Below the pieces are notes generated by a model that saw only the letters and a program-made list of their open reading frames with translations, had not been told where the DNA came from and did not search any database. Shown here piece by piece: positions 1 through 17,817 of a stretch of 18,731 nt of DNA; the stretch's first letter is position 1, and the number at the start of each line of letters is the position of its first letter. A program made the position numbers and the translations under genes. Source of the DNA: a virus. The stretch lies in UHGV virus genome UHGV-0371767; one strand, written 5' to 3'.

Positions 1-59
1 TTACGTTGCAAATCGGTGTTCTGGTCATTTGTTGACACGCGTACATAGCCAATAAGCAT
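1..59 (-). CDS. Gin/Pin/Cin-family serine DNA invertase, first 19 codons only (gene continues beyond left edge of window)
   Basis: Reverse complement of 1..59 reads ATG CTT ATT GGC TAT GTA CGC GTG TCA ACA AAT GAC CAG AAC ACC GAT TTG CAA CGT = MLIGYVRVSTNDQNTDLQR, matching the N-terminus of Gin as I recall it (catalytic Ser in the VSTNDQ motif). Lies directly beside an invertible tail-fibre segment. Confidence 0.85.
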   Translation of the reverse strand, partial: MLIGYVRVSTNDQNTDLQR

Positions 60-86
60 GATCAATCCCCTGAATAAAAACCGTGG

Positions 87-638
87 ATGATGCCAGTTAG
101 CCATTATCTCTGCATTTTCATAAACGTTGGTTTGGGAGAAGGCTCTGCATTACCTGTTGGGGTGCCTGTTCCGTGGCCCTCAGCCACTCCGCCAACAGGC
201 TGGCTGAAATGCAACGGAGCAGCTTTTTCTGCTGAAAAATACCCGGAACTGGCAAAGGCTTACCCGACAAATAAATTGCCTGATTTACGCGGTGAATTTA
301 TTCGTGGCTGGGATGACGGACGTGGTATGGATACGGGGAGGGCAATATTATCCGCTCAGGGCGATGCCATACGTAATATCTATGGTGAGTTCAAGACTGT
401 AAACACCGAAAATTATTCAATATGGGAATCAGTAGGCTCGTTTAAGGGGGCAGTAGTGCCTTTGAACCCCTCAACGAACAATAGTTATTTCTCCTTAATC
501 AGAAGTATGGTGACCGAAAGAACAGATGGCGCTGTTTACCCAAAAGTGATTGGCCTTGATGCTTCAAGAATTGTTCCAACTGCAAACGAAAACCGTCCTC
601 GTAACATTGCCTTTAATTATATCGTGAGGGCTGCCTGA
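87..638 (+). CDS. Alternative tail-fibre C-terminal variable domain, silent in this orientation (real coding part starts near 129, inside the invertible segment)
   Basis: ORF shares the GLGE junction peptide with the expressed fibre; it lacks a credible independent start because the first 14 codons lie outside the segment; stop codon overlaps the start of the downstream assembly gene (CTGATG at 633..640). Confidence 0.7.
   Translation: MMPVSHYLCIFINVGLGEGSALPVGVPVPWPSATPPTGWLKCNGAAFSAEKYPELAKAYPTNKLPDLRGEFIRGWDDGRGMDTGRAILSAQGDAIRNIYGEFKTVNTENYSIWESVGSFKGAVVPLNPSTNNSYFSLIRSMVTERTDGAVYPKVIGLDASRIVPTANENRPRNIAFNYIVRAA
115..140. repeat. Invertase crossover site, left (26 bp: two 12-bp half-sites around a 2-bp core), gix/cix/pix-like
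   Basis: Plus strand TTTTCATAAACGTTGGTTTGGGAGAA; its reverse complement TTCTCCCAAACCAACGTTTATGAAAA shares the first 14 nt and 20 of 26 positions with the site at 2099..2124, in inverted orientation. Architecture fits the Hin/Gin site family. Confidence 0.8.
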
Positions 639-1240
639 TGAATAAAGCCGTATTAAATAACGAACTCATTGCCATAAAAGCGGGAGTCATTACCATTTAT
701 AATTATGATGGTGAAACGCGGGAATATATTTCCACATCAACTGAATATCTTGCGGTTGGCGTCGGTATCCCGGCATGTTCTTGTTTAGATGCACCAGTTA
801 CACATAAAGCTGGTTATGCAATCTGCCGTTCTGCAGATTTTAACTCATGGGAATATGTGCCAGACCATCGCGGTGAAATCATCTATAGCACCGAAACAGG
901 AGAATCGAAAGAAATCACAGCTCCGGGTGATTATCCTGAAAATACAACCACTATCGCCCCGTTAACGCCATACGATGAATGGGATGGTGAGAAATGGGTG
1001 ACAGATACTGAGGCACAGCATAGCGCCGCAGTAGGCGCGGCAGAAGCACAGCGTCAGTCACTGATTGATACTGCAATGGCTTCCATTAGTCTGATTCAAC
1101 TGAAATTGCAGGCCGGGCGGAAGCTGATGCAGACAGAAAACACCCGACTTAACGCTGTGCTGGATTACATTGACGCGGTGACGGCAACAGATACCAGCAC
1201 CGCGCCGGACGTCATCTGGCCTGAACTGCCGGAGGCGTAG
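638..1240 (+). CDS. Tail-fibre assembly protein (alternative copy, paired with the silent fibre tail)
   Basis: 200-aa ORF directly following the alternative fibre tail with ATG/TGA overlap; its 3' end converges on and overlaps the other assembly gene (1212..1240). Position and arrangement match Mu U/U' and P2 G-type assembly genes. Confidence 0.7.
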   Translation: MNKAVLNNELIAIKAGVITIYNYDGETREYISTSTEYLAVGVGIPACSCLDAPVTHKAGYAICRSADFNSWEYVPDHRGEIIYSTETGESKEITAPGDYPENTTTIAPLTPYDEWDGEKWVTDTEAQHSAAVGAAEAQRQSLIDTAMASISLIQLKLQAGRKLMQTENTRLNAVLDYIDAVTATDTSTAPDVIWPELPEA

Positions 1241-1655
1241 GCCATTCAATATCTGGCGCACCGGAAGTATCAACCAGTTCCAGTGCGTCCAGATAATCCA
1301 GCCATAAATTATATTGTTCCAGCTCGTCACCTTTCAGACGACCAATAGCAGCTTTGCCAGGCCACTGATGGGTATTGATGTAGGTATTGACTTCTGAAAC
1401 CAAAGATATTTTTTTCATTTCAGCCGTCAACACCTCATCCTCTTTTGAAGGCGGTGGGGAATTAATCCATATTGGTCGTCCTGAACTGTCAGCGCCAATT
1501 TCTTTCCCTTCTGGATGCAGCCCAAGAAATTTCTCATATGTTTCTCGGGTAATTTCAATAACATCATCTGGAAGCGTTCCCGCATCCTCATATTCTGGAA
1601 ACAATTCTTGCAGATAAAAACTTTTACTCCCGGGTGAAAAGAATACTGAGTTCAT
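1212..1655 (-). CDS. G: Tail-fibre assembly protein (expressed copy)
   Basis: 147-aa ORF immediately downstream of the tail-fibre gene (ATG at 1655, fibre stop at 1658..1660), inside the invertible segment; typical fibre/assembly-protein pairing. Confidence 0.75.
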   Translation of the reverse strand: MNSVFFSPGSKSFYLQELFPEYEDAGTLPDDVIEITRETYEKFLGLHPEGKEIGADSSGRPIWINSPPPSKEDEVLTAEMKKISLVSEVNTYINTHQWPGKAAIGRLKGDELEQYNLWLDYLDALELVDTSGAPDIEWPTPPAVQAR

Positions 1656-1657
1656 TC

Positions 1658-3160
1658 TTACCGTCCAATGATTAACGCTGAGACGCTGGTATCTGAAGGA
1701 AAGGCTGCATTCAGTGGTTTGTCGACTTTGAATACAATCGTATTATTCCCCCTGACAGCGGCAAAAGAACAAACCGCCGTCGCGTATGAACCTGTAATAT
1801 TACTGGATACACCACCATAAGCTGTTGTTGAGACCAGAGGGATAACGCCCAGTACCTTATTAGGAAATACAAAGGGCAATGTGGCTGTGGCAATATAAGA
1901 CTTATTAGAACCTGTGATGGCATAAGCATTATCAGTCATTCCATTCATCGCCACTGGGCCGCTTATACTTACAGTAACCATCTGAGTGATTAGCCCGTCA
2001 GGTTGACGAATCACAAAATTTCCATTGCCACCAGTAACCGTCCAGAAAGACATATCAGGGATTTGGTTTTCCCCGTTGCCCACATTCCGTTTTGCTGCTT
2101 CTCCCAAACCAAGGTATGCGAGAAGACCAGTTACATCCTTTCCACTCAAATTAGTCAACGTATTGTCCAGCGGTTGTTTACCTGCCAGCGCATTAAGCAT
2201 TGTCGTGGCAAAGTTCGGATCATTCCCCAGTGCCGCCGCCAGTTCGTTCAGTGTATCCAGTGCCGCAGGTGCAGAACCCACCATTGCTGCAATCGCTGAT
2301 TTCACAAAAGCCGTAGTGGCAATCTGTGTATTGTTGACCGACTGCGCCGCCGTGGGGGCTGTTGGCGTTCCGGTGAGTGCCGGACTCGACAGCGGCGCTT
2401 TCAGTGCCAGCGCATTGTTAATGGTGGTACTGAATTTCGGATCATTGTTAATGGCTACAGCTATTTCTTTCAGCGTGTCCAGCGTGGCTGGCGCACCATT
2501 AATAAGAGCCGTCAGTGCCGCCTGAACAAATGCGGTGGTCGCAAGCTGCGTGGTATTATTCCCCGCCGCTGGCGTTGGCGCTTTGGGGGTTCCGGTAAAC
2601 GTCGGACTTTCTTTGGGTGCATACTGTGAATGCGGGTCCGGTGCGGCAAGATGTTTTGCCATCAGGTCATCCACGTACACCTTCAACTCCAGTGCTTTGT
2701 CATCCACATACTTGCGGGTTGCCAGCACTACAGCAGGGTCTATTTTCAGGGTGATATTGTCCGTGCTGCTGGTTATCAGTACCATGCGCACGGTCTGGGT
2801 GCGCCCGCTGCCTTCAGCCAGTTGCGGCTTATAGCTTTCCGGGCAGTTGCCCACGGCAATCAATGCCCCGGACTCATCAAACAGGCCCACTTCACGGATC
2901 CACCAACCGCCCTCGTTTTCAGGGATCACCTGTTCGGCAATAATCTGGCTGCTGTTCTGCGGGTCGATATAGAGCATATTCAGCGCAGCCCGGCGTTTCT
3001 CATTTACCAGTGCAGTCTGCTTTGCGTCCGGCGTTGGCAATGTTCCGCCGCCATCGCCGACCGCCATATGGGTAATTTTTAACGGCACACCGAGCGCGGC
3101 GGCGCTGGCAAGTTTCGCCGCGCCAATATCCGTCAGCAGGGTATAAAATTTTGTGCTCAT
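1658..3160 (-). CDS. H: Tail-fibre protein (constant N-terminal part 2125..3160 fused to variable C-terminal part inside the invertible segment)
   Basis: 500-aa ORF whose N-terminus (MSTKFYTLLTDIGAAKLA) resembles P2 gpH as recalled; contains two Ala/Thr-rich internal repeats; ATGA overlap with the upstream baseplate gene at 3157..3160. Confidence 0.85.
   Translation of the reverse strand: MSTKFYTLLTDIGAAKLASAAALGVPLKITHMAVGDGGGTLPTPDAKQTALVNEKRRAALNMLYIDPQNSSQIIAEQVIPENEGGWWIREVGLFDESGALIAVGNCPESYKPQLAEGSGRTQTVRMVLITSSTDNITLKIDPAVVLATRKYVDDKALELKVYVDDLMAKHLAAPDPHSQYAPKESPTFTGTPKAPTPAAGNNTTQLATTAFVQAALTALINGAPATLDTLKEIAVAINNDPKFSTTINNALALKAPLSSPALTGTPTAPTAAQSVNNTQIATTAFVKSAIAAMVGSAPAALDTLNELAAALGNDPNFATTMLNALAGKQPLDNTLTNLSGKDVTGLLAYLGLGEAAKRNVGNGENQIPDMSFWTVTGGNGNFVIRQPDGLITQMVTVSISGPVAMNGMTDNAYAITGSNKSYIATATLPFVFPNKVLGVIPLVSTTAYGGVSSNITGSYATAVCSFAAVRGNNTIVFKVDKPLNAAFPSDTSVSALIIGR
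2099..2124. repeat. Invertase crossover site, right (26 bp), inside the tail-fibre gene at the constant/variable junction
   Basis: Plus strand TTCTCCCAAACCAAGGTATGCGAGAA, inverted repeat partner of 115..140. On the minus strand it encodes the GLGE peptide (aa 351-354 of the 500-aa fibre), which is also encoded at 129..140 in the alternative plus-strand fibre ORF. Confidence 0.8.
2171..2593. repeat. Internal tandem duplication (two units of about 70 codons) within the tail-fibre shaft
   Basis: Protein segments around aa 191-259 and 263-330 are clearly similar (…NNTTQLATTAFVQAALTALINGAPATLDTLKEIAVAINNDPKFSTTINNALA… versus …NNTQIATTAFVKSAIAAMVGSAPAALDTLNELAAALGNDPNFATTMLNALA…), with matching DNA repeats. 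Coordinates approximate. Confidence 0.6.
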
Positions 3161-3762
3161 GGATTCACTCTCATTGTGTCAATAACATGGACCGCCCCGC
3201 CTTCATGCACGGTGCCGCCGGAAATAATTGTTTCGTTGATATACGGATAGATCGTGATTTCTTCGCCAAGATAGCTTGCAGCCCCCACCCAATATGGACC
3301 GCTGGTCTGCAGATTGATGGACATGCCGATCATGTGGCGGCTACATGGTTTGGCATCGCTTATCAGTCGCTCAAGTTCCAGATAGGTATCTTCAGTGATG
3401 CCCTGGTCCTGCACGCCGATATCCAGGCGAAACGTGCCCGGTGCCTCTCCGGTCTGCCACCACTCAATAATGCGGATCAGAAAGCCGAACGGCTCCACCA
3501 CCCGCCGCACGGCACTGGTGGTCCCTTTATGCTGATGAATATAAAAAGCATCCTTCACCACCTGGCGCTTGACGCTTTCTGTCCAGCCCTCGTCCCAGCG
3601 ATCCACAGAGAACGCCCAGGCGAGATAAGGCAGGAAACTGACCGGACAGGTTGCCGGATTCCACAAGTCACGAAGCGGCACCTGCAGATCAGAAATCCCG
3701 CTGCAGGTTTGCGCCAGTCGGCGCTCCAGTGGTGTTGAACCCGGTGGCAGTAGACTATTCAT
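3157..3762 (-). CDS. I: Baseplate assembly protein I
   Basis: 201-aa ORF between the J-like and H-like genes with overlapping junctions on both sides; position conserved with P2 gene I. Exact start uncertain. Confidence 0.7.
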   Translation of the reverse strand: MNSLLPPGSTPLERRLAQTCSGISDLQVPLRDLWNPATCPVSFLPYLAWAFSVDRWDEGWTESVKRQVVKDAFYIHQHKGTTSAVRRVVEPFGFLIRIIEWWQTGEAPGTFRLDIGVQDQGITEDTYLELERLISDAKPCSRHMIGMSINLQTSGPYWVGAASYLGEEITIYPYINETIISGGTVHEGGAVHVIDTMRVNP

Positions 3763-4663
3763 CCGTTCCTCCGTTGGTTACGCTCCACTGCGTACATGAT
3801 GCCGCCTGTGTTTTGTTCAGGACCACATCCGCCAGAGGAGAAGCCAGCTCCACACGCTGCACACCCTCAACATGCAGGGCGGCAAAGATGGCGCTACGGC
3901 GAATATCCCGACCAAGACGCGTCTGACTGGCGATGTACTTCTGCAGGCTGACTTTTGCCGCTGCCATTACCGGCTCTGCTTCCGGTCCCGGATAAAGAAA
4001 AATGGTGGCTTCCACGCGATACGGGATGATTTCTGCGCTGCGAACCGTAAGACGGTCAGCCACCGGGCGGACGTTCTCACTGTTCAGAGCTTTTTCCACC
4101 ACGTCCAGCAGGTCTTTTTCTGCAGTTCCATCGCCTTCGCGGCTAAGGACAGTCAGCACCACCTCTGCAGGTGCCGGGCTGGTTGCACTGGCATCCGCCA
4201 CCCGACCGTCGGCGCTTCGGGCATGAAATTCATAAGCTGCAGTTGGCCCCGCAACTGAAAGCCCTTCAAAGGCTGCAGGCACACGCAGGCGTAACGCTTC
4301 ATCGCTTTCCATCACAGCTGCAACGGGCGGCACAGCGTCATTATCAGCAGGCGTCACCGTCAGGCGTTTCACGTTGTAGTTGGCAGCGAGCTGGTCAAGA
4401 TCGCTGCCCATCGCGTAAGCCACCATCACAGCCTGCGCGGCTTCGTTAATGCGCTGGCGCAGAAGCAACTCACGGTAAGCGTTCTCCTGCAGCAATTTGG
4501 TGACGGGTTCAGATTCCAGTTCCAGCGTGCGGATCACTGCTTCCTGCTCATCTTTCGGATGAAGCGCAACAAATTCGGCCTTGCGTTCGGCAAACAGCGT
4601 CTCAAAGTCCGGCACATCCACAATCTGCGGCGCAGGCAACTGCGAAAGGTCAATCACTGCCAT
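3755..4663 (-). CDS. J: Baseplate protein J (baseplate wedge)
   Basis: ORF track gives 3755..4702, but the ATG at 4663 is preceded by AGGAG at 7-nt spacing and gives 302 aa, the length I recall for P2 gpJ. Confidence 0.75.
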   Translation of the reverse strand: MAVIDLSQLPAPQIVDVPDFETLFAERKAEFVALHPKDEQEAVIRTLELESEPVTKLLQENAYRELLLRQRINEAAQAVMVAYAMGSDLDQLAANYNVKRLTVTPADNDAVPPVAAVMESDEALRLRVPAAFEGLSVAGPTAAYEFHARSADGRVADASATSPAPAEVVLTVLSREGDGTAEKDLLDVVEKALNSENVRPVADRLTVRSAEIIPYRVEATIFLYPGPEAEPVMAAAKVSLQKYIASQTRLGRDIRRSAIFAALHVEGVQRVELASPLADVVLNKTQAASCTQWSVTNGGTDE

Positions 4664-5675: not shown

Positions 5676-6332
5676 ATGATGGTTTTGGATAAAGAGCAAT
5701 ATCAAGAAGTTCTAAACGAACTAGAGAAAAGAAGATATAACTCCAGAAGATCAACCACAATATTCATGACAGCCATGATCGTCATACTTGCTTATATTGC
5801 CACTGCAGTCATTTACGTAGAATTACAGAAAACACATGAAAAGGATAGAATTTCATCGCTGCTAACCGCTGACGGAATTAAATCCGTAGAATCAACAATT
5901 GACAGCTTAAATCGTGCCAGTATTGAGCTTTCTAGAAAACAAACCCAGATAAAAAACACACCTAACTCAACCCCTCAAATTCAAATAAGCGGAATAGCCC
6001 CTTTACCTTCAACACTAAACCAAAAGTCTTCTATAGATAAAATTCTAGAAACAGTAGGACCTATACTAATAGTGTTTTCCGCTATTCTATTTGTTGTGTA
6101 TATACTTCGTCTTTTTATTATATTCTTAAAATACAATATGCAAATGAATAATGATTACGACAATCAAAAAATCTCTTTTCTGCTTTCAGGTGGAGACACG
6201 AAAGAGTTTGGAGAGATACTTCAAAAAGTAAGAGGTCACAATATAAGTTTTGAAAAGACCCCTACTCTTCCGCAAGAAAAAATAATAACTGAACTGGTTG
6301 ATTTAGTTAAATCAATTAAGGGAAAGAATTAA
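5676..6332 (+). CDS. AT-rich inserted gene: predicted inner-membrane protein with two transmembrane helices, unknown function
   Basis: 218-aa ORF with AAGAGAG ribosome-binding site before ATG 5676; hydrophobic stretches around aa 28-50 and 118-148; codon usage and base composition visibly AT-rich compared with flanking phage genes; opposite strand to the late operons; lies where I recall P2 orf30. Confidence 0.7.
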   Translation: MMVLDKEQYQEVLNELEKRRYNSRRSTTIFMTAMIVILAYIATAVIYVELQKTHEKDRISSLLTADGIKSVESTIDSLNRASIELSRKQTQIKNTPNSTPQIQISGIAPLPSTLNQKSSIDKILETVGPILIVFSAILFVVYILRLFIIFLKYNMQMNNDYDNQKISFLLSGGDTKEFGEILQKVRGHNISFEKTPTLPQEKIITELVDLVKSIKGKN

Positions 6333-15112: not shown

Positions 15113-15742
15113 TCATTTCAAATAACGACAATCAGTTTCCCTATCAAGAAAATCAATCATTTCATCATTTGTATAATGTGCATTCAAACCAATTTTAAAC
15201 GTTGGCGGATTAGAATAAAAGACGTCGAAATGATATAATGGATGACGATTTCCATTAGCCCTTTCTTCATCGACATCATATCTAATATAACCATCCTCAT
15301 AAGTTAACAACATTCTAAGAAAAGGCCAAAACCCGGGAATACCTTGATGTTCTTCAATATTTAACAATGGTTCAAAAAAGGCCCAAGAAGAACTATTCAA
15401 ATAAGAGGAGTCATTAATAAAAGAAATGACTTTTGATGTTACAAAACTATCTATACACTCCATTTCTGGACTACTAAATAAAATCTGACCATTAATTTCA
15501 TCAAGAAAAAAAGGAAATGCAAGAGAATAATATTTATTTTCACTAAAGAAGAAAACTCGACTCATCTTTGATATATGAAGTTTCACTCTCCCAACCACAT
15601 TCTGTTCGCATGGTTCTGTATAAACAGAAATTAGTTTGATTAATCTCATCAATATTTCAATAACATCTTTCTTTGTTCGTATTGGCTTAAAGGCCCAGTC
15701 ACACTGAGCCTGCTCCAGACTAAAATAATACTCTTTATTCAC
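15113..15742 (-). CDS. Cargo gene B: 209-aa soluble protein of unknown function, translationally coupled to the upstream helicase-like gene
   Basis: GTG start at 15742..15740 preceded by AGGAG 5 nt upstream and overlapping the upstream stop (GTGA); AT-rich composition; no recognisable catalytic motif. Confidence 0.65.
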   Translation of the reverse strand: MNKEYYFSLEQAQCDWAFKPIRTKKDVIEILMRLIKLISVYTEPCEQNVVGRVKLHISKMSRVFFFSENKYYSLAFPFFLDEINGQILFSSPEMECIDSFVTSKVISFINDSSYLNSSSWAFFEPLLNIEEHQGIPGFWPFLRMLLTYEDGYIRYDVDEERANGNRHPLYHFDVFYSNPPTFKIGLNAHYTNDEMIDFLDRETDCRYLK

Positions 15743-17817
15743 TTCGACTCCTGAAGCATTATTTCATAGTTGAACCGAACAAGAGTAGTAATTTTATCGA
15801 CATCAAAAGAATCAGGCATGATTGTTTTTACTGTATTATACAGGGATGTACGAAATATCGGCTCAATCTGTAAGTCATCGAAGACCTTTGTAACCAAATC
15901 ATAATGAGATATATTTTTCTCATCATATTTGATTGTTGTTCTTATTTTTGAAATAACTTCTCTCGGTGGAACGTTAATATCCATATAACCATGCTCATTA
16001 ATAGCATCTAACCCCTTTTCTATCTCATTCTGTAAGTCTTTATTCCCATCCCCCAGAAGCAAATATGATTTAATAAAGGAACGAGTTAACATCATATATA
16101 GTGAATTTCGATAAGAATGGCTCTTGATAATATCACGAGTAACACAGATAACAAAAGGAAACTCCAACCCTTTTACATGGTTTTTATTACTTATGAATAA
16201 CGTATCTTTAATTTTTTCTTTTGTTTCATATGCCTTATTAACCTTCCACCCTAATAATCTAGGCACGCTCAATTCAAGTCTGTCTGCGATTTTAAATATA
16301 GTCTTAGCCTGATCAATAAAGATGATACCAATATCATCAGCCAAAACAGTAGGATTCTCCTCCTTAATTTTACGGAGTATACCCAAAATATTCTCTTCTT
16401 CAGTTTCATATGTGGAATTAATTAATTCCACACTATGTATTTTTGCATCCGTTACATCTTCAAATCTTCTTAGTGGCTCTCTCTTTAATCTTAATTTACC
16501 TTTTACCGATTCATCAACTATATAACCGCAGGCTTCCCATTCATTATTCATTAACCAAGTTAATGGTTCTTCTTCAAATAGCCCCATACCTAAACCATGA
16601 GCAAACATCAATGTCCTTGGATCTGTTCGGTAGCATTTACTTAGAAGAAAGTCTGGCTGTATCTCATTAGAGATATTAGTATCAAATATACTTTGAAATA
16701 TATCACCAGCAACATAAATAGTATCACGAGTTACCAGCTCGCAAAGCTCAATGAAGCTTGATGGGAAATCCTGACTTTCATCTATTAACATAAAGTCAAA
16801 GCAATGCTTAAATTCATTGCTTGGCAACTTTTTTAGTTCATCCAACGCAATTCTACATACTTTATCGAAAGTCATCACATAGCTAAAGCGATAGAAACTT
16901 AATCCATAATATTCACATATATATCTATATGCGCCAGAGTTACCGTCATATTGAGAACCCCATGCATTAACACACCAAAGTCTTTCATTCCAGCTAATCT
17001 GCTGCTCGACCTTCATAAAGTTGAAAAACTCTGGAATTCTCTTTCTCATATTGTCTGCCAATATTTTATTATGGCACGTAAACATTATTTTACTATTTAA
17101 ATTCTCCTTATCCAAATATATTTCCTTTAACTTATGAAGCAATAGTTCAGTCTTACCAGTACCTGATAATCCTTGAATAACAACTTTTTTCTTATCAAAT
17201 TTTTGGTATACAAACCTTGTCTGATCTCCATCAAACAAAATTATCTTTTGCTTAACCTTGTCAAGTATATTATCTGGCACATTGCCTTTAACTTTATCAA
17301 TATTATTGATACTTCCTGTTAAGAGAGAGATAATTAACTCACTCTTTTTAGCCAGAACACCATCAATAATTTTAATTTCATCAAAAAACTTATCAAGATT
17401 ACCGAAACTAAAATCAGCGTATGAGCACTCAGTAACAAGTTTATCTTTCCACGCTCGAGGCCTACCAATTGTATCTTTATAATTGTATTTATCTGATAAG
17501 GAACCTAAATCCTCTATAAAATCCTCTATAAAATTTTGTATACCATCAACATCATCACTAAAAGCAACGAACGCTAATTGGTATCCTGGGCTTAATATAA
17601 TAAGAACATCGTCTCTATTATATTTATATTTATTTTCCCCTAAGGGATTCATTATTGCATAAATCTGCATTTGATGAGTATTTGCATACTCTTCAACAGA
17701 GTTCAAAAAATCAGCATTTGTATCATTTTTTAAATCAGGCTGGATATAAAAGAAACTGCTCATAGAAAGCCTTAACGAGGTGGATAAAAACTTATATGTT
17801 GTTTCTAAAATTAGCAT
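15739..17817 (-). CDS. Cargo gene A: SF1 helicase-like P-loop ATPase (UvrD/RecD/DUF2075-like motifs) with an unassigned N-terminal domain of about 200 aa
   Basis: 692-aa ORF. Walker A GLSGTGKT (aa 216-223), motif II LIDESQD (aa 344-350), motif III VAGDIFQS (aa 369-376), motif IV CYRT (aa 395-398), motif VI-like YMMLTRS near the C-terminus. Strongly AT-rich. The true start may be the internal ATG at 17763 (AAGG ribosome-binding site), giving 674 aa. Confidence 0.75.
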   Translation of the reverse strand: MLILETTYKFLSTSLRLSMSSFFYIQPDLKNDTNADFLNSVEEYANTHQMQIYAIMNPLGENKYKYNRDDVLIILSPGYQLAFVAFSDDVDGIQNFIEDFIEDLGSLSDKYNYKDTIGRPRAWKDKLVTECSYADFSFGNLDKFFDEIKIIDGVLAKKSELIISLLTGSINNIDKVKGNVPDNILDKVKQKIILFDGDQTRFVYQKFDKKKVVIQGLSGTGKTELLLHKLKEIYLDKENLNSKIMFTCHNKILADNMRKRIPEFFNFMKVEQQISWNERLWCVNAWGSQYDGNSGAYRYICEYYGLSFYRFSYVMTFDKVCRIALDELKKLPSNEFKHCFDFMLIDESQDFPSSFIELCELVTRDTIYVAGDIFQSIFDTNISNEIQPDFLLSKCYRTDPRTLMFAHGLGMGLFEEEPLTWLMNNEWEACGYIVDESVKGKLRLKREPLRRFEDVTDAKIHSVELINSTYETEEENILGILRKIKEENPTVLADDIGIIFIDQAKTIFKIADRLELSVPRLLGWKVNKAYETKEKIKDTLFISNKNHVKGLEFPFVICVTRDIIKSHSYRNSLYMMLTRSFIKSYLLLGDGNKDLQNEIEKGLDAINEHGYMDINVPPREVISKIRTTIKYDEKNISHYDLVTKVFDDLQIEPIFRTSLYNTVKTIMPDSFDVDKITTLVRFNYEIMLQESK

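Follow-up and report, generated by a model that had tools for sequence, protein, structure and literature searches.

Tail-fibre operons that switch by inversion have long been known, and the serine-invertase kind is textbook material. In the C segment of phage P1 (invertase Cin) and the G segment of phage Mu (invertase Gin), a constant fibre part, Sc, is combined with the invertible cassettes Sv/U and Sv'/U'. Both systems have 26-bp crossover sites whose 2-bp core falls within the fibre gene; the invertase gene lies alongside and carries an enhancer in its 5' end. A third system is the P segment of e14, a cryptic prophage of E. coli K-12; e14 is the defective remnant of a lambdoid phage, and its stfE is a pseudogene. 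Experiments have established that PinE, PinQ and PinR invert the e14 P segment at its inverted repeat, and the StfE2 chimera that arises after PinQ-mediated inversion was reported to have an effect on superinfecting phage or the cell surface (PMC12529663). Inversions in P2-like E. coli prophages are also already published. Goldberg et al. (2014) demonstrated by deep sequencing and PCR that these inversions are phase-variable and that the orientations coexist (PMC4272514). Additionally, the Z/fun hotspot of P2-like phages often carries an invertase (bioRxiv 10.1101/2024.10.15.618418).

Here we analysed an 18,731-nucleotide stretch of viral DNA (UHGV virus genome UHGV-0371767), referred to as the window. 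We conclude that it very probably contains a two-state inversion switch of the Pin/Cin/Gin/Hin serine-invertase type in the tail-fibre operon of a P2-like prophage, a finding whose significance reaches little beyond annotation. The window encodes an apparently complete P2-type structural module, in which Tail_P2_I, Baseplate_J, a gpP-type terminase and a portal protein follow the P2 order, and its nearest phage records are Peduoviridae (e.g., Escherichia phage Cartapus). Judged by these genes and records, the host element of the switch is a P2-like (Peduoviridae) prophage. The fibre gene lies within an intact P2-type late operon, with I, J, W and V upstream.

Like P1 and Mu, the window combines a constant fibre part with two invertible cassettes, 26-bp sites whose 2-bp core falls in the fibre gene, and an invertase gene next to the segment, the enhancer in its 5' end being presumed. 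The AA core of the window sites is also that of P1 cixR, whereas Mu gix has a GA/TC core instead of AA/TT. The segment spans 2.0 kb, compared with 4.3 kb in P1 and, counted from one annotated G-segment boundary to the other, ∼3.1 kb in Mu, and its variable parts (∼150–170 aa) are much shorter than those of either phage. The backbone differs as well, as the window phage is P2-like and neither Mu nor P1. With the e14 P segment the window shares the inner repeat TTGGTTTGGGAGAAGG, related cassettes, and a 29-bp tail-to-tail overlap of the two assembly genes (tfaP and tfaE in e14). However, the window segment is longer (1,986 bp versus 1,797 bp in e14) and occupies an apparently intact P2-type structural module rather than a defective lambdoid remnant. 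The P2-like prophage loci of EPEC E2348/69 are likened to the window by their backbone and by their position between fibre gene H and the sheath gene. One of these EPEC loci has three inverted repeats and four states (PMC4272514), whereas the window has two sites.

Anatomy of the invertible segment

The earlier note on this DNA had described two inverted 26-bp sites bracketing two convergent fibre C-termini, each with its own assembly gene. We recovered both the sites and the cassettes, and the features of the locus are as follows.

1–59, minus strand: 5' end of the serine DNA invertase gene, codons 1–19; the gene continues past the left window edge
1–41: in-window part of the presumed recombinational enhancer (invertase gene positions 19–59), placed by position homology; the remainder lies off the window
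115–140: left crossover site, invertase-proximal, 26 bp, core TT at 127–128
127–2112: invertible segment, 1,986 bp core to core; breakpoints in sister isolates fall within the common 15-bp repeat
129–638, plus strand: silent alternative fibre C-terminus B, 169 aa, starting GLGEGSA (Pfam Collar PF07484, 7.8e-16)
638–1240, plus strand: assembly gene of cassette B, 200 aa, silent in the window orientation (Pfam Caudo_TAP, 2.5e-30)
1212–1655, minus strand: assembly gene of cassette A, 147 aa, expressed orientation (Pfam Caudo_TAP, 2.5e-27)
1658–2110, minus strand: fibre C-terminus A, expressed orientation, aa 351–500, starting GLGEAAK (PHROG 12714, function unknown)
2099–2124: right crossover site, 26 bp, within the fibre gene, core AA at 2111–2112
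2111–3160, minus strand: fibre constant part, aa 1–350 (Pfam Phage_tail_fib over aa 1–150, 2.5e-65)
3160–1658, minus strand: fibre gene, 500 aa (Pfam Phage_tail_fib at the N-terminus)

Each cassette thus consists of a fibre C-terminus and a tail-fibre assembly gene, and all four cassette ORFs are intact in the window. When the segment was flipped in silico, an in-frame gene of 1,560 nt resulted, which encodes a fibre of 519 aa where the unflipped gene encodes one of 500 aa. The flip exchanges the 150-aa tip for a 169-aa tip and the 147-aa assembly protein for one of 200 aa, which makes more exact the swap of about 150 C-terminal residues and the assembly protein that had been proposed. The silent half of this switchable gene corresponds to the ORF at 87–638, which genome annotations list on its own under the name 'tail fiber protein' or 'hypothetical protein'.

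Crossover sites

With 27-nt arms (115–141 and 2098–2124) that are 81% complementary, the inverted repeat ranked first among those in 1–4500. The inner 15 bp are perfect (127–141 versus 2098–2112). Read as 26-mers, the left site on the minus strand is TTCTCCCAAACC AA CGTTTATGAAAA and the right site on the plus strand is TTCTCCCAAACC AA GGTATGCGAGAA. Both have a 12-2-12 layout and lie in inverted orientation, with identical AA/TT cores in inverted register; half-site self-symmetry is 8/12 at 115–140 and 10/12 at 2099–2124.

We compared the right site with known sites and found 23/26 positions identical to e14 pix, 21/26 to P1 cixR (as annotated in the P1 record NC_005856) and 17/26 to Mu gix, which agrees with the likeness to gix and cix sites that had been suggested. 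The inner 16 bp at 127–142, TTGGTTTGGGAGAAGG, are identical to the e14 P-segment inverted repeat (PMC12529663).

Scanning the 18.7-kb window with a 14-mer (≤2 mismatches) yielded two matches against 0.14 expected. A degenerate 26-mer scan of the window returned these two sites alone (0.01 expected), and none of 200 shuffles reached two. A third crossover site, the hallmark of a shufflon, was absent from the 18.7-kb window even when three mismatches to the degenerate consensus were allowed. We rejected a multi-site shufflon or Min-type multiple inversion, which needs at least three crossover sites, as the window has two.

The earlier note had also placed the switch point in a block of GLGE codons common to the peptides AYLGLGEAAK and INVGLGEGSA. 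Both peptides are present, and the crossover site does cover the GLGE codons, which form its inner half-site. The strand-exchange core itself (127–128; 2111–2112), however, is in the Leu codon just 5' of them.

Invertase gene and proposed mechanism

The switch had been called complete, which does not hold for the window itself, because only the first 19 invertase codons lie within it and the rest of the gene and part of the presumed enhancer are outside. The fragment (59 to 1, minus strand) translates to MLIGYVRVSTNDQNTDLQR and includes the Ser9 position of the YVRVST motif. Window positions 1–141 are 100% identical to E. coli 1504D004 and 1604D011. In the relative identical over this stretch, the gene encodes a full 188-aa invertase with Resolvase and HTH_7 domains; this protein shares 83% identity with PinE, compared with 77% for Cin and 72% for Gin.

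The P1 record places the Cin enhancer at cin gene positions 19–90. The homologous stretch in the relative is identical to cin at 56/72 positions and to pinE at 63/72, values not clearly above those of neighbouring coding blocks, so that the enhancer is assigned by positional homology only. With 72–83% conservation along the entire gene, and with the region itself coding, conservation of an enhancer here is not separable from coding conservation. An enhancer at this place is a presumed one.

We infer the catalytic details and the Fis dependence of the switch from the Hin/Gin/Cin family. The adjacent invertase would bind each site as a dimer, probably with the aid of an enhancer, occupied by Fis, at the 5' end of the invertase gene itself. 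Both sites would then be cut at the identical AA/TT core, and the halves would be rotated by 180 degrees and religated. The constant 5' part of the fibre gene (aa 1–350) would be transcribed from the late operon. In the window state, the 150-aa tip and the 147-aa chaperone would be made, the tip in frame with the constant part; in the other state, a 169-aa collar-type tip in the same frame and a 200-aa TfaE-like chaperone would take their place. As either cassette can be joined to the constant part, progeny phage would bear one of two receptor-binding tips.

A working switch is not the only reading of this anatomy, since the sites and cassettes could be relics and the segment frozen here, for instance if the invertase is disrupted beyond the window edge or the prophage is defective. 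This would fit the 19 invertase codons, which are all that the window holds, and the degraded condition of many E. coli prophages of this type, such as that of E. coli CFSAN051542 with an IS1 insertion within this locus. We consider it unlikely, given the intact 188-aa invertase of the relative that is identical over 1–141, the identical cores and perfect inner half-sites retained at both sites, the four intact cassette ORFs, and the apparently complete structural module with terminase and portal. Additionally, Pin-family invertases work in trans on the identical e14 repeat (PMC12529663), so that the segment could stay invertible even if its cognate enzyme were lost.

Relatives of the fibre tips and assembly proteins

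Tips A and B are unrelated to each other in sequence. Tip B is of the widespread collar type; it is 57% identical to e14 StfE and 66.7% identical to HK97 Stf, and its matches in the PDB are the T4 gp37 tip and a short tail fibre. Assembly protein B is 89.5% identical to e14 TfaE, and assembly protein A is 56% identical to e14 TfaP. Within the constant part, fibre residues 181–340 share 80% identity with the constant part of P1 S.

For tip A, a sequence search of the PDB gave no match, and tblastn against 50,697 phage records gave just seven weak partial matches. Similarity between tip A and e14 StfP was not detectable. Single-sequence AlphaFold2 prediction of aa 351–500 produced an unusable model (mean pLDDT 31.8, pTM 0.24). 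At the level of sequence, tip A is an orphan without a characterised homologue. It might represent an uncharacterised receptor-binding module to which isolated phages offer no close counterpart.

We infer from the precedent of Mu and P1 that the two states differ in host range. Virions produced by the prophage probably come with either of two receptor-binding tips, and hence probably with one of two host ranges, and both cassettes should be considered when host range is predicted for P2-like prophages.

The kinship of tip B to StfE bears on two further possibilities, both of which concern the lysogen. As the repeat is identical to that of e14, which PinE, PinQ and PinR invert, resident Pin-family invertases could flip the segment in trans, and the chimera carrying the StfE-like tip B might then affect adsorption of other phages; such an additional activity of the switch in the lysogen is very unlikely, in our estimate. 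Still less probable is a switch that serves chiefly the lysogen and not the virion, through a chimeric fibre by which the cell surface is altered or superinfection by other phages is blocked. The crossover repeat shared with e14 and the relationship of cassette B to StfE and TfaE would suit it, but the fibre gene belongs to an intact P2-type late operon, and such an operon is, as in P2, silent in the lysogen. Furthermore, we found no promoter-like site serving the cassettes. Scanning positions 1–3300 for sigma-70 promoters gave seven candidates compared with 4.6 ± 2.1 in shuffles, with none seen between the invertase gene and the left site and no usable invertase promoter. The same region contained six terminator candidates compared with 3.0 ± 1.5 in shuffles, none of them usable between the cassettes; neither count departs from its shuffle mean by more than about two standard deviations.

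Both orientations occur in related genomes

Among 5,426 complete E. coli genomes, the cassette pair occurs 22 times in the window orientation and 32 times flipped. The alternative state that the earlier note predicted is found in nature: the construct that we flipped in silico aligns with E. coli 22AR0118 over its whole length as a single uninterrupted match (100% coverage, 95.7% identity), and the flipped fibre is annotated there as a 1,560-nt CDS, the predicted length.

The polymorphism of orientation was observed in relatives 94–99% identical to the window, and two pairs of sister isolates allow the inversion to be seen directly. In 1604D011 and 1504D004, 5.9 kb of flanking sequence is 100% identical while the segment is inverted. 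The same is true of DG342-2 and DG341-1, whose segments are also 100% identical between the cores. These sister isolates have identical chromosome lengths, and their sole difference is the precise inversion between the two sites. Assemblies of strains like these may differ, or be mis-polished, at this locus purely through the switch.

That the two arrangements were produced by mosaic exchange through horizontal transfer, or by homologous recombination where a short motif is conserved, and not by programmed inversion, is scarcely credible: phage matches do end exactly at 127 or 2099 and cassette partners do vary by genome, but the sister isolates with 100% identical flanks and the same chromosome length differ by a precise inversion alone, the 15-bp perfect repeat is very short as a substrate of RecA-dependent recombination, its 12-2-12 architecture and its core are those found in verified invertase sites, and a Pin-family invertase gene adjoins the segment. 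Many phage matches to the window stop at the two positions above and the cassettes pair with differing partners across genomes, so the crossover sites are joints of mosaicism as well.

Crossover sites

As an earlier note on this DNA had claimed, two inverted 26-bp sites with a 12-2-12 layout are present at 115-140 and 2099-2124. The inverted repeat formed by 115-141 and 2098-2124 ranked first within positions 1-4500 of the window, with arms of 27 nt and 81% complementarity.

Left 26-bp site (invertase-proximal), 115-140, - strand reading: TTCTCCCAAACC AA CGTTTATGAAAA
Right 26-bp site (inside the fibre gene), 2099-2124, + strand reading: TTCTCCCAAACC AA GGTATGCGAGAA

Each 26-mer is an imperfect palindrome in which two 12-bp half-sites flank a 2-bp core. 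Both sites have the same core (AA/TT), which together with the half-site facing the segment forms a 15-bp repeat with no mismatch between left and right. Allowing up to 2 mismatches, the 14-mer TTCTCCCAAACCAA was found at two places in 18.7 kb, both of them crossover sites, against 0.14 expected. A degenerate 26-mer consensus (up to 3 mismatches) also recovered both sites, with 0.01 expected and an equal count in 0 of 200 shuffles, and neither search detected a third crossover site in the 18.7-kb window. Based on these low expected counts and the shuffles, the repeat is therefore real, beyond chance and without a third copy. Many matches to phage records begin or end precisely at 127 or 2099, so the crossover sites double as mosaic joints.

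In-frame exchange of the fibre C-terminus

The sites bracket two cassettes, A (expressed) and B (silent).

Fibre gene, 3160..1658, - strand: 500 aa, P2-type N-terminal fibre domain (PF12571, 2.5e-65)
Assembly gene of cassette A (tfaA), 1655..1212, - strand: 147 aa, Caudo_TAP, 3' of the fibre gene
Silent fibre C-terminus B (tip B), from 129, + strand: 169 aa, Phage Tail Collar domain (PF07484)
Assembly gene of cassette B (tfaB), 638..1240, + strand: 200 aa, Caudo_TAP, 3' of C-terminus B

The assembly genes (1655..1212, -, and 638..1240, +) are convergent and overlap by 29 bp. In silico inversion of 127-2112 yielded an unbroken 1,560-nt gene of 519 aa, whose joint reads ...LAYLGLGEGSALPVG... The proposed in-frame swap of fibre C-terminus and cognate assembly gene thus holds, as the flipped gene is open and each cassette has its own Caudo_TAP gene. 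The earlier note also mapped the switch point to a GLGE block. The shared GLGE (fibre residues 351-354) does lie at the site, its codons forming the inner half-site, but exchange occurs a codon further 5': the 2-bp core falls in the preceding Leu codon (cTT), which in the silent copy is gTT (Val). Similarly, about 150 C-terminal residues were said to be swapped; 150 aa do leave, but the replacement is 169 aa.

The silent cassette can also be read as a separate 183-aa ORF (87-638, +), whose start codon, the ATG at 87, precedes the crossover site. In RefSeq genomes, equivalent ORFs are labelled 'tail fiber protein' or 'hypothetical protein'. Such free-standing ORFs are most likely an annotation artefact, produced when a switchable gene is annotated in one of its states.

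Both orientations in E. coli genomes

A set of 5,426 complete E. coli genomes was screened with probes for the junctions and with the whole 3.2-kb construct in its flipped form, and matches of at least 80% coverage were counted.

Genomes carrying each arrangement or junction
Native 3.2-kb arrangement: 22
Flipped 3.2-kb arrangement: 32
Native right junction: 24
Flipped right junction: 66
Flipped left junction: 161

The flipped construct matched strain 22AR0118 over 100% of its length in a single piece (95.7% identity), and the fibre CDS of that strain is 1,560 nt, equal to the prediction. The most telling evidence for inversion is two pairs of sister isolates. Isolates 1604D011 and 1504D004 come from the same source and have chromosomes of 5,198,112 bp each; they share flanks of 1,980 and 3,915 bp at 100% identity, while the segment between these flanks is inverted. 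Both carry the two cassettes of the window, with the same sites. Likewise, DG342-2 and DG341-1 (5,067,659 bp each) have 100% identical flanks of 2,296 and 3,603 bp, and their inverted segment is the same except for a single outer-half-site base beside each core. The comparison of sister pairs therefore places the inversion breakpoints inside the 15-bp repeat of core and inner half-site that the two sites have in common. Relatives, rather than the source strain, provide direct evidence that such elements undergo inversion at these sites over the time in which strains diverge.

Within the inverted segment, 1604D011 and 1504D004 differ by 16 mismatches, all on the cassette-A side (L002 2929-3814 compared with L005; equivalent to window 1141-2026). 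These may reflect gene conversion by a second prophage, or else a polishing artefact caused by mixed orientations or by paralogous copies of the prophage. One E. coli chromosome, NZ_OU342919.1, has the locus twice, once native and once flipped.

Invertase and relation to known systems

Invertase N-terminus, 59..1, - strand: encodes MLIGYVRVSTNDQNTDLQR, Pin/Gin/Cin-type; gene runs past the window edge

The earlier note called the switch complete. Within the window it is incomplete, since the left edge cuts the invertase gene and leaves most of it outside. A relative identical over window 1-141 has a 188-aa invertase with Resolvase and HTH_7 domains (83% identity to PinE, 77% to Cin and 72% to Gin). 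The annotated P1 enhancer occupies positions 19-90 of the invertase gene, of which the window covers 19-59 only, and conservation of the putative enhancer stretch is not above that of neighbouring coding blocks.

Reference sites were taken from annotated records: Mu (NC_000929), P1 (NC_005856, with cixL, cixR, crossover points and enhancer annotated) and e14 in MG1655. The right site shares 23/26 positions with e14 pix, 21/26 with cixR and 17/26 with gix. The window sites, cix and pix all have AA as their core, whereas that of gix is GA. The experimentally defined inversion repeats of the e14 P-segment are 5'-TTGGTTTGGGAGAAGG-3' and its complement (PMC12529663), and TTGGTTTGGGAGAAGG is matched at 16/16 positions by window 127-142 and at 15/16 by the right site. 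tfaB is 89.5% identical to e14 TfaE, tip B 57% to StfE and tfaA 56% to TfaP, while the constant part of P1 S is 80% identical to fibre residues 181-340. Given the site, invertase, cassette and fibre similarities together, the element is a switch of the P-segment kind (pix/Pin) joined to a P2-type fibre.

PinE, PinQ and PinR all invert the e14 segment (PMC12529663) via an identical repeat, so resident Pin enzymes could flip the segment here in trans. This possibility weakens the earlier note's view that a truncated cognate invertase would count against the switch. The note's observation is confirmed and its interpretation supported, with three corrections (the cut-off invertase, the exchange point and the 150-for-169-aa swap). 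The same kind of phase-variable inversion was found by deep sequencing and PCR in P2-like E. coli prophages of EPEC E2348/69 (PMC4272514), and an invertase with inverted neighbour genes is frequent at the Z/fun hotspot of P2-like phages (bioRxiv 10.1101/2024.10.15.618418). The switch is an ordinary example of a well-known kind and would not surprise a specialist.

Directly established are the inverted sites with identical cores, the in-frame C-terminus exchange, a chaperone per cassette, the adjacent Pin-family gene start and both states in nature. By analogy with Hin, Gin and Cin, invertase dimers would occupy each site, the synapse would be assembled by a Fis-bound enhancer at the 5' end of the invertase gene, and, after cleavage at the 2-bp core, the subunits would rotate by 180 degrees before religation.

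The two tips

Tip B is a module of the collar type that occurs widely, with matches in 798 phage records. It shares 99.4% identity with a Salmonella phage sequence and 66.7% with HK97 Stf, and its PDB matches include the T4 gp37 tip and short tail fibres. The expressed tip A (1658-2110, -) has no PDB sequence match and only weak partial matches, none close, among 50,697 phage records, and falls in a PHROG of unknown function. Judged by these three sources, tip A is an orphan. Many E. coli prophages nevertheless carry it; it occupies the silent position in 161 genomes and, less often, the expressed position in 24. A single-sequence AlphaFold model of tip A was unusable (pLDDT 31.8). After Mu and P1, it is reasonable to infer that tips A and B would have different host ranges.

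Phage backbone and candidate cargo

Homologues of P2 I (Tail_P2_I) and J (Baseplate_J) lie upstream of the fibre gene (-), and a gpP-type large terminase and portal protein farther along. Among phage records, the nearest belong to the Peduoviridae. One example, Escherichia phage Cartapus, is annotated with the layout of the window: sheath, DNA invertase, fibre fragment, two assembly genes, fibre, I and J.

Directly past the portal gene, a gene pair (15113-17817, -) encodes products of 692 and 209 aa. The former resembles a UvrD/SF1 helicase (Pfam UvrD_C_2, UvrD-helicase and AAA_19; PADLOC 'Helicase' PDLC03002, 2.9e-28, with weak GajB matches); the latter has no family match. The pair sits at a known P2-like cargo/defence hotspot, making it a candidate anti-phage system. 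A 218-aa ORF (5676-6332, +) with no match in Pfam or PADLOC separates baseplate gene V from the tail-completion genes and runs on the strand opposite to theirs. This is probably a further variable cargo slot; the close relative E. coli 1604D011 has a TIR-domain protein in its place.
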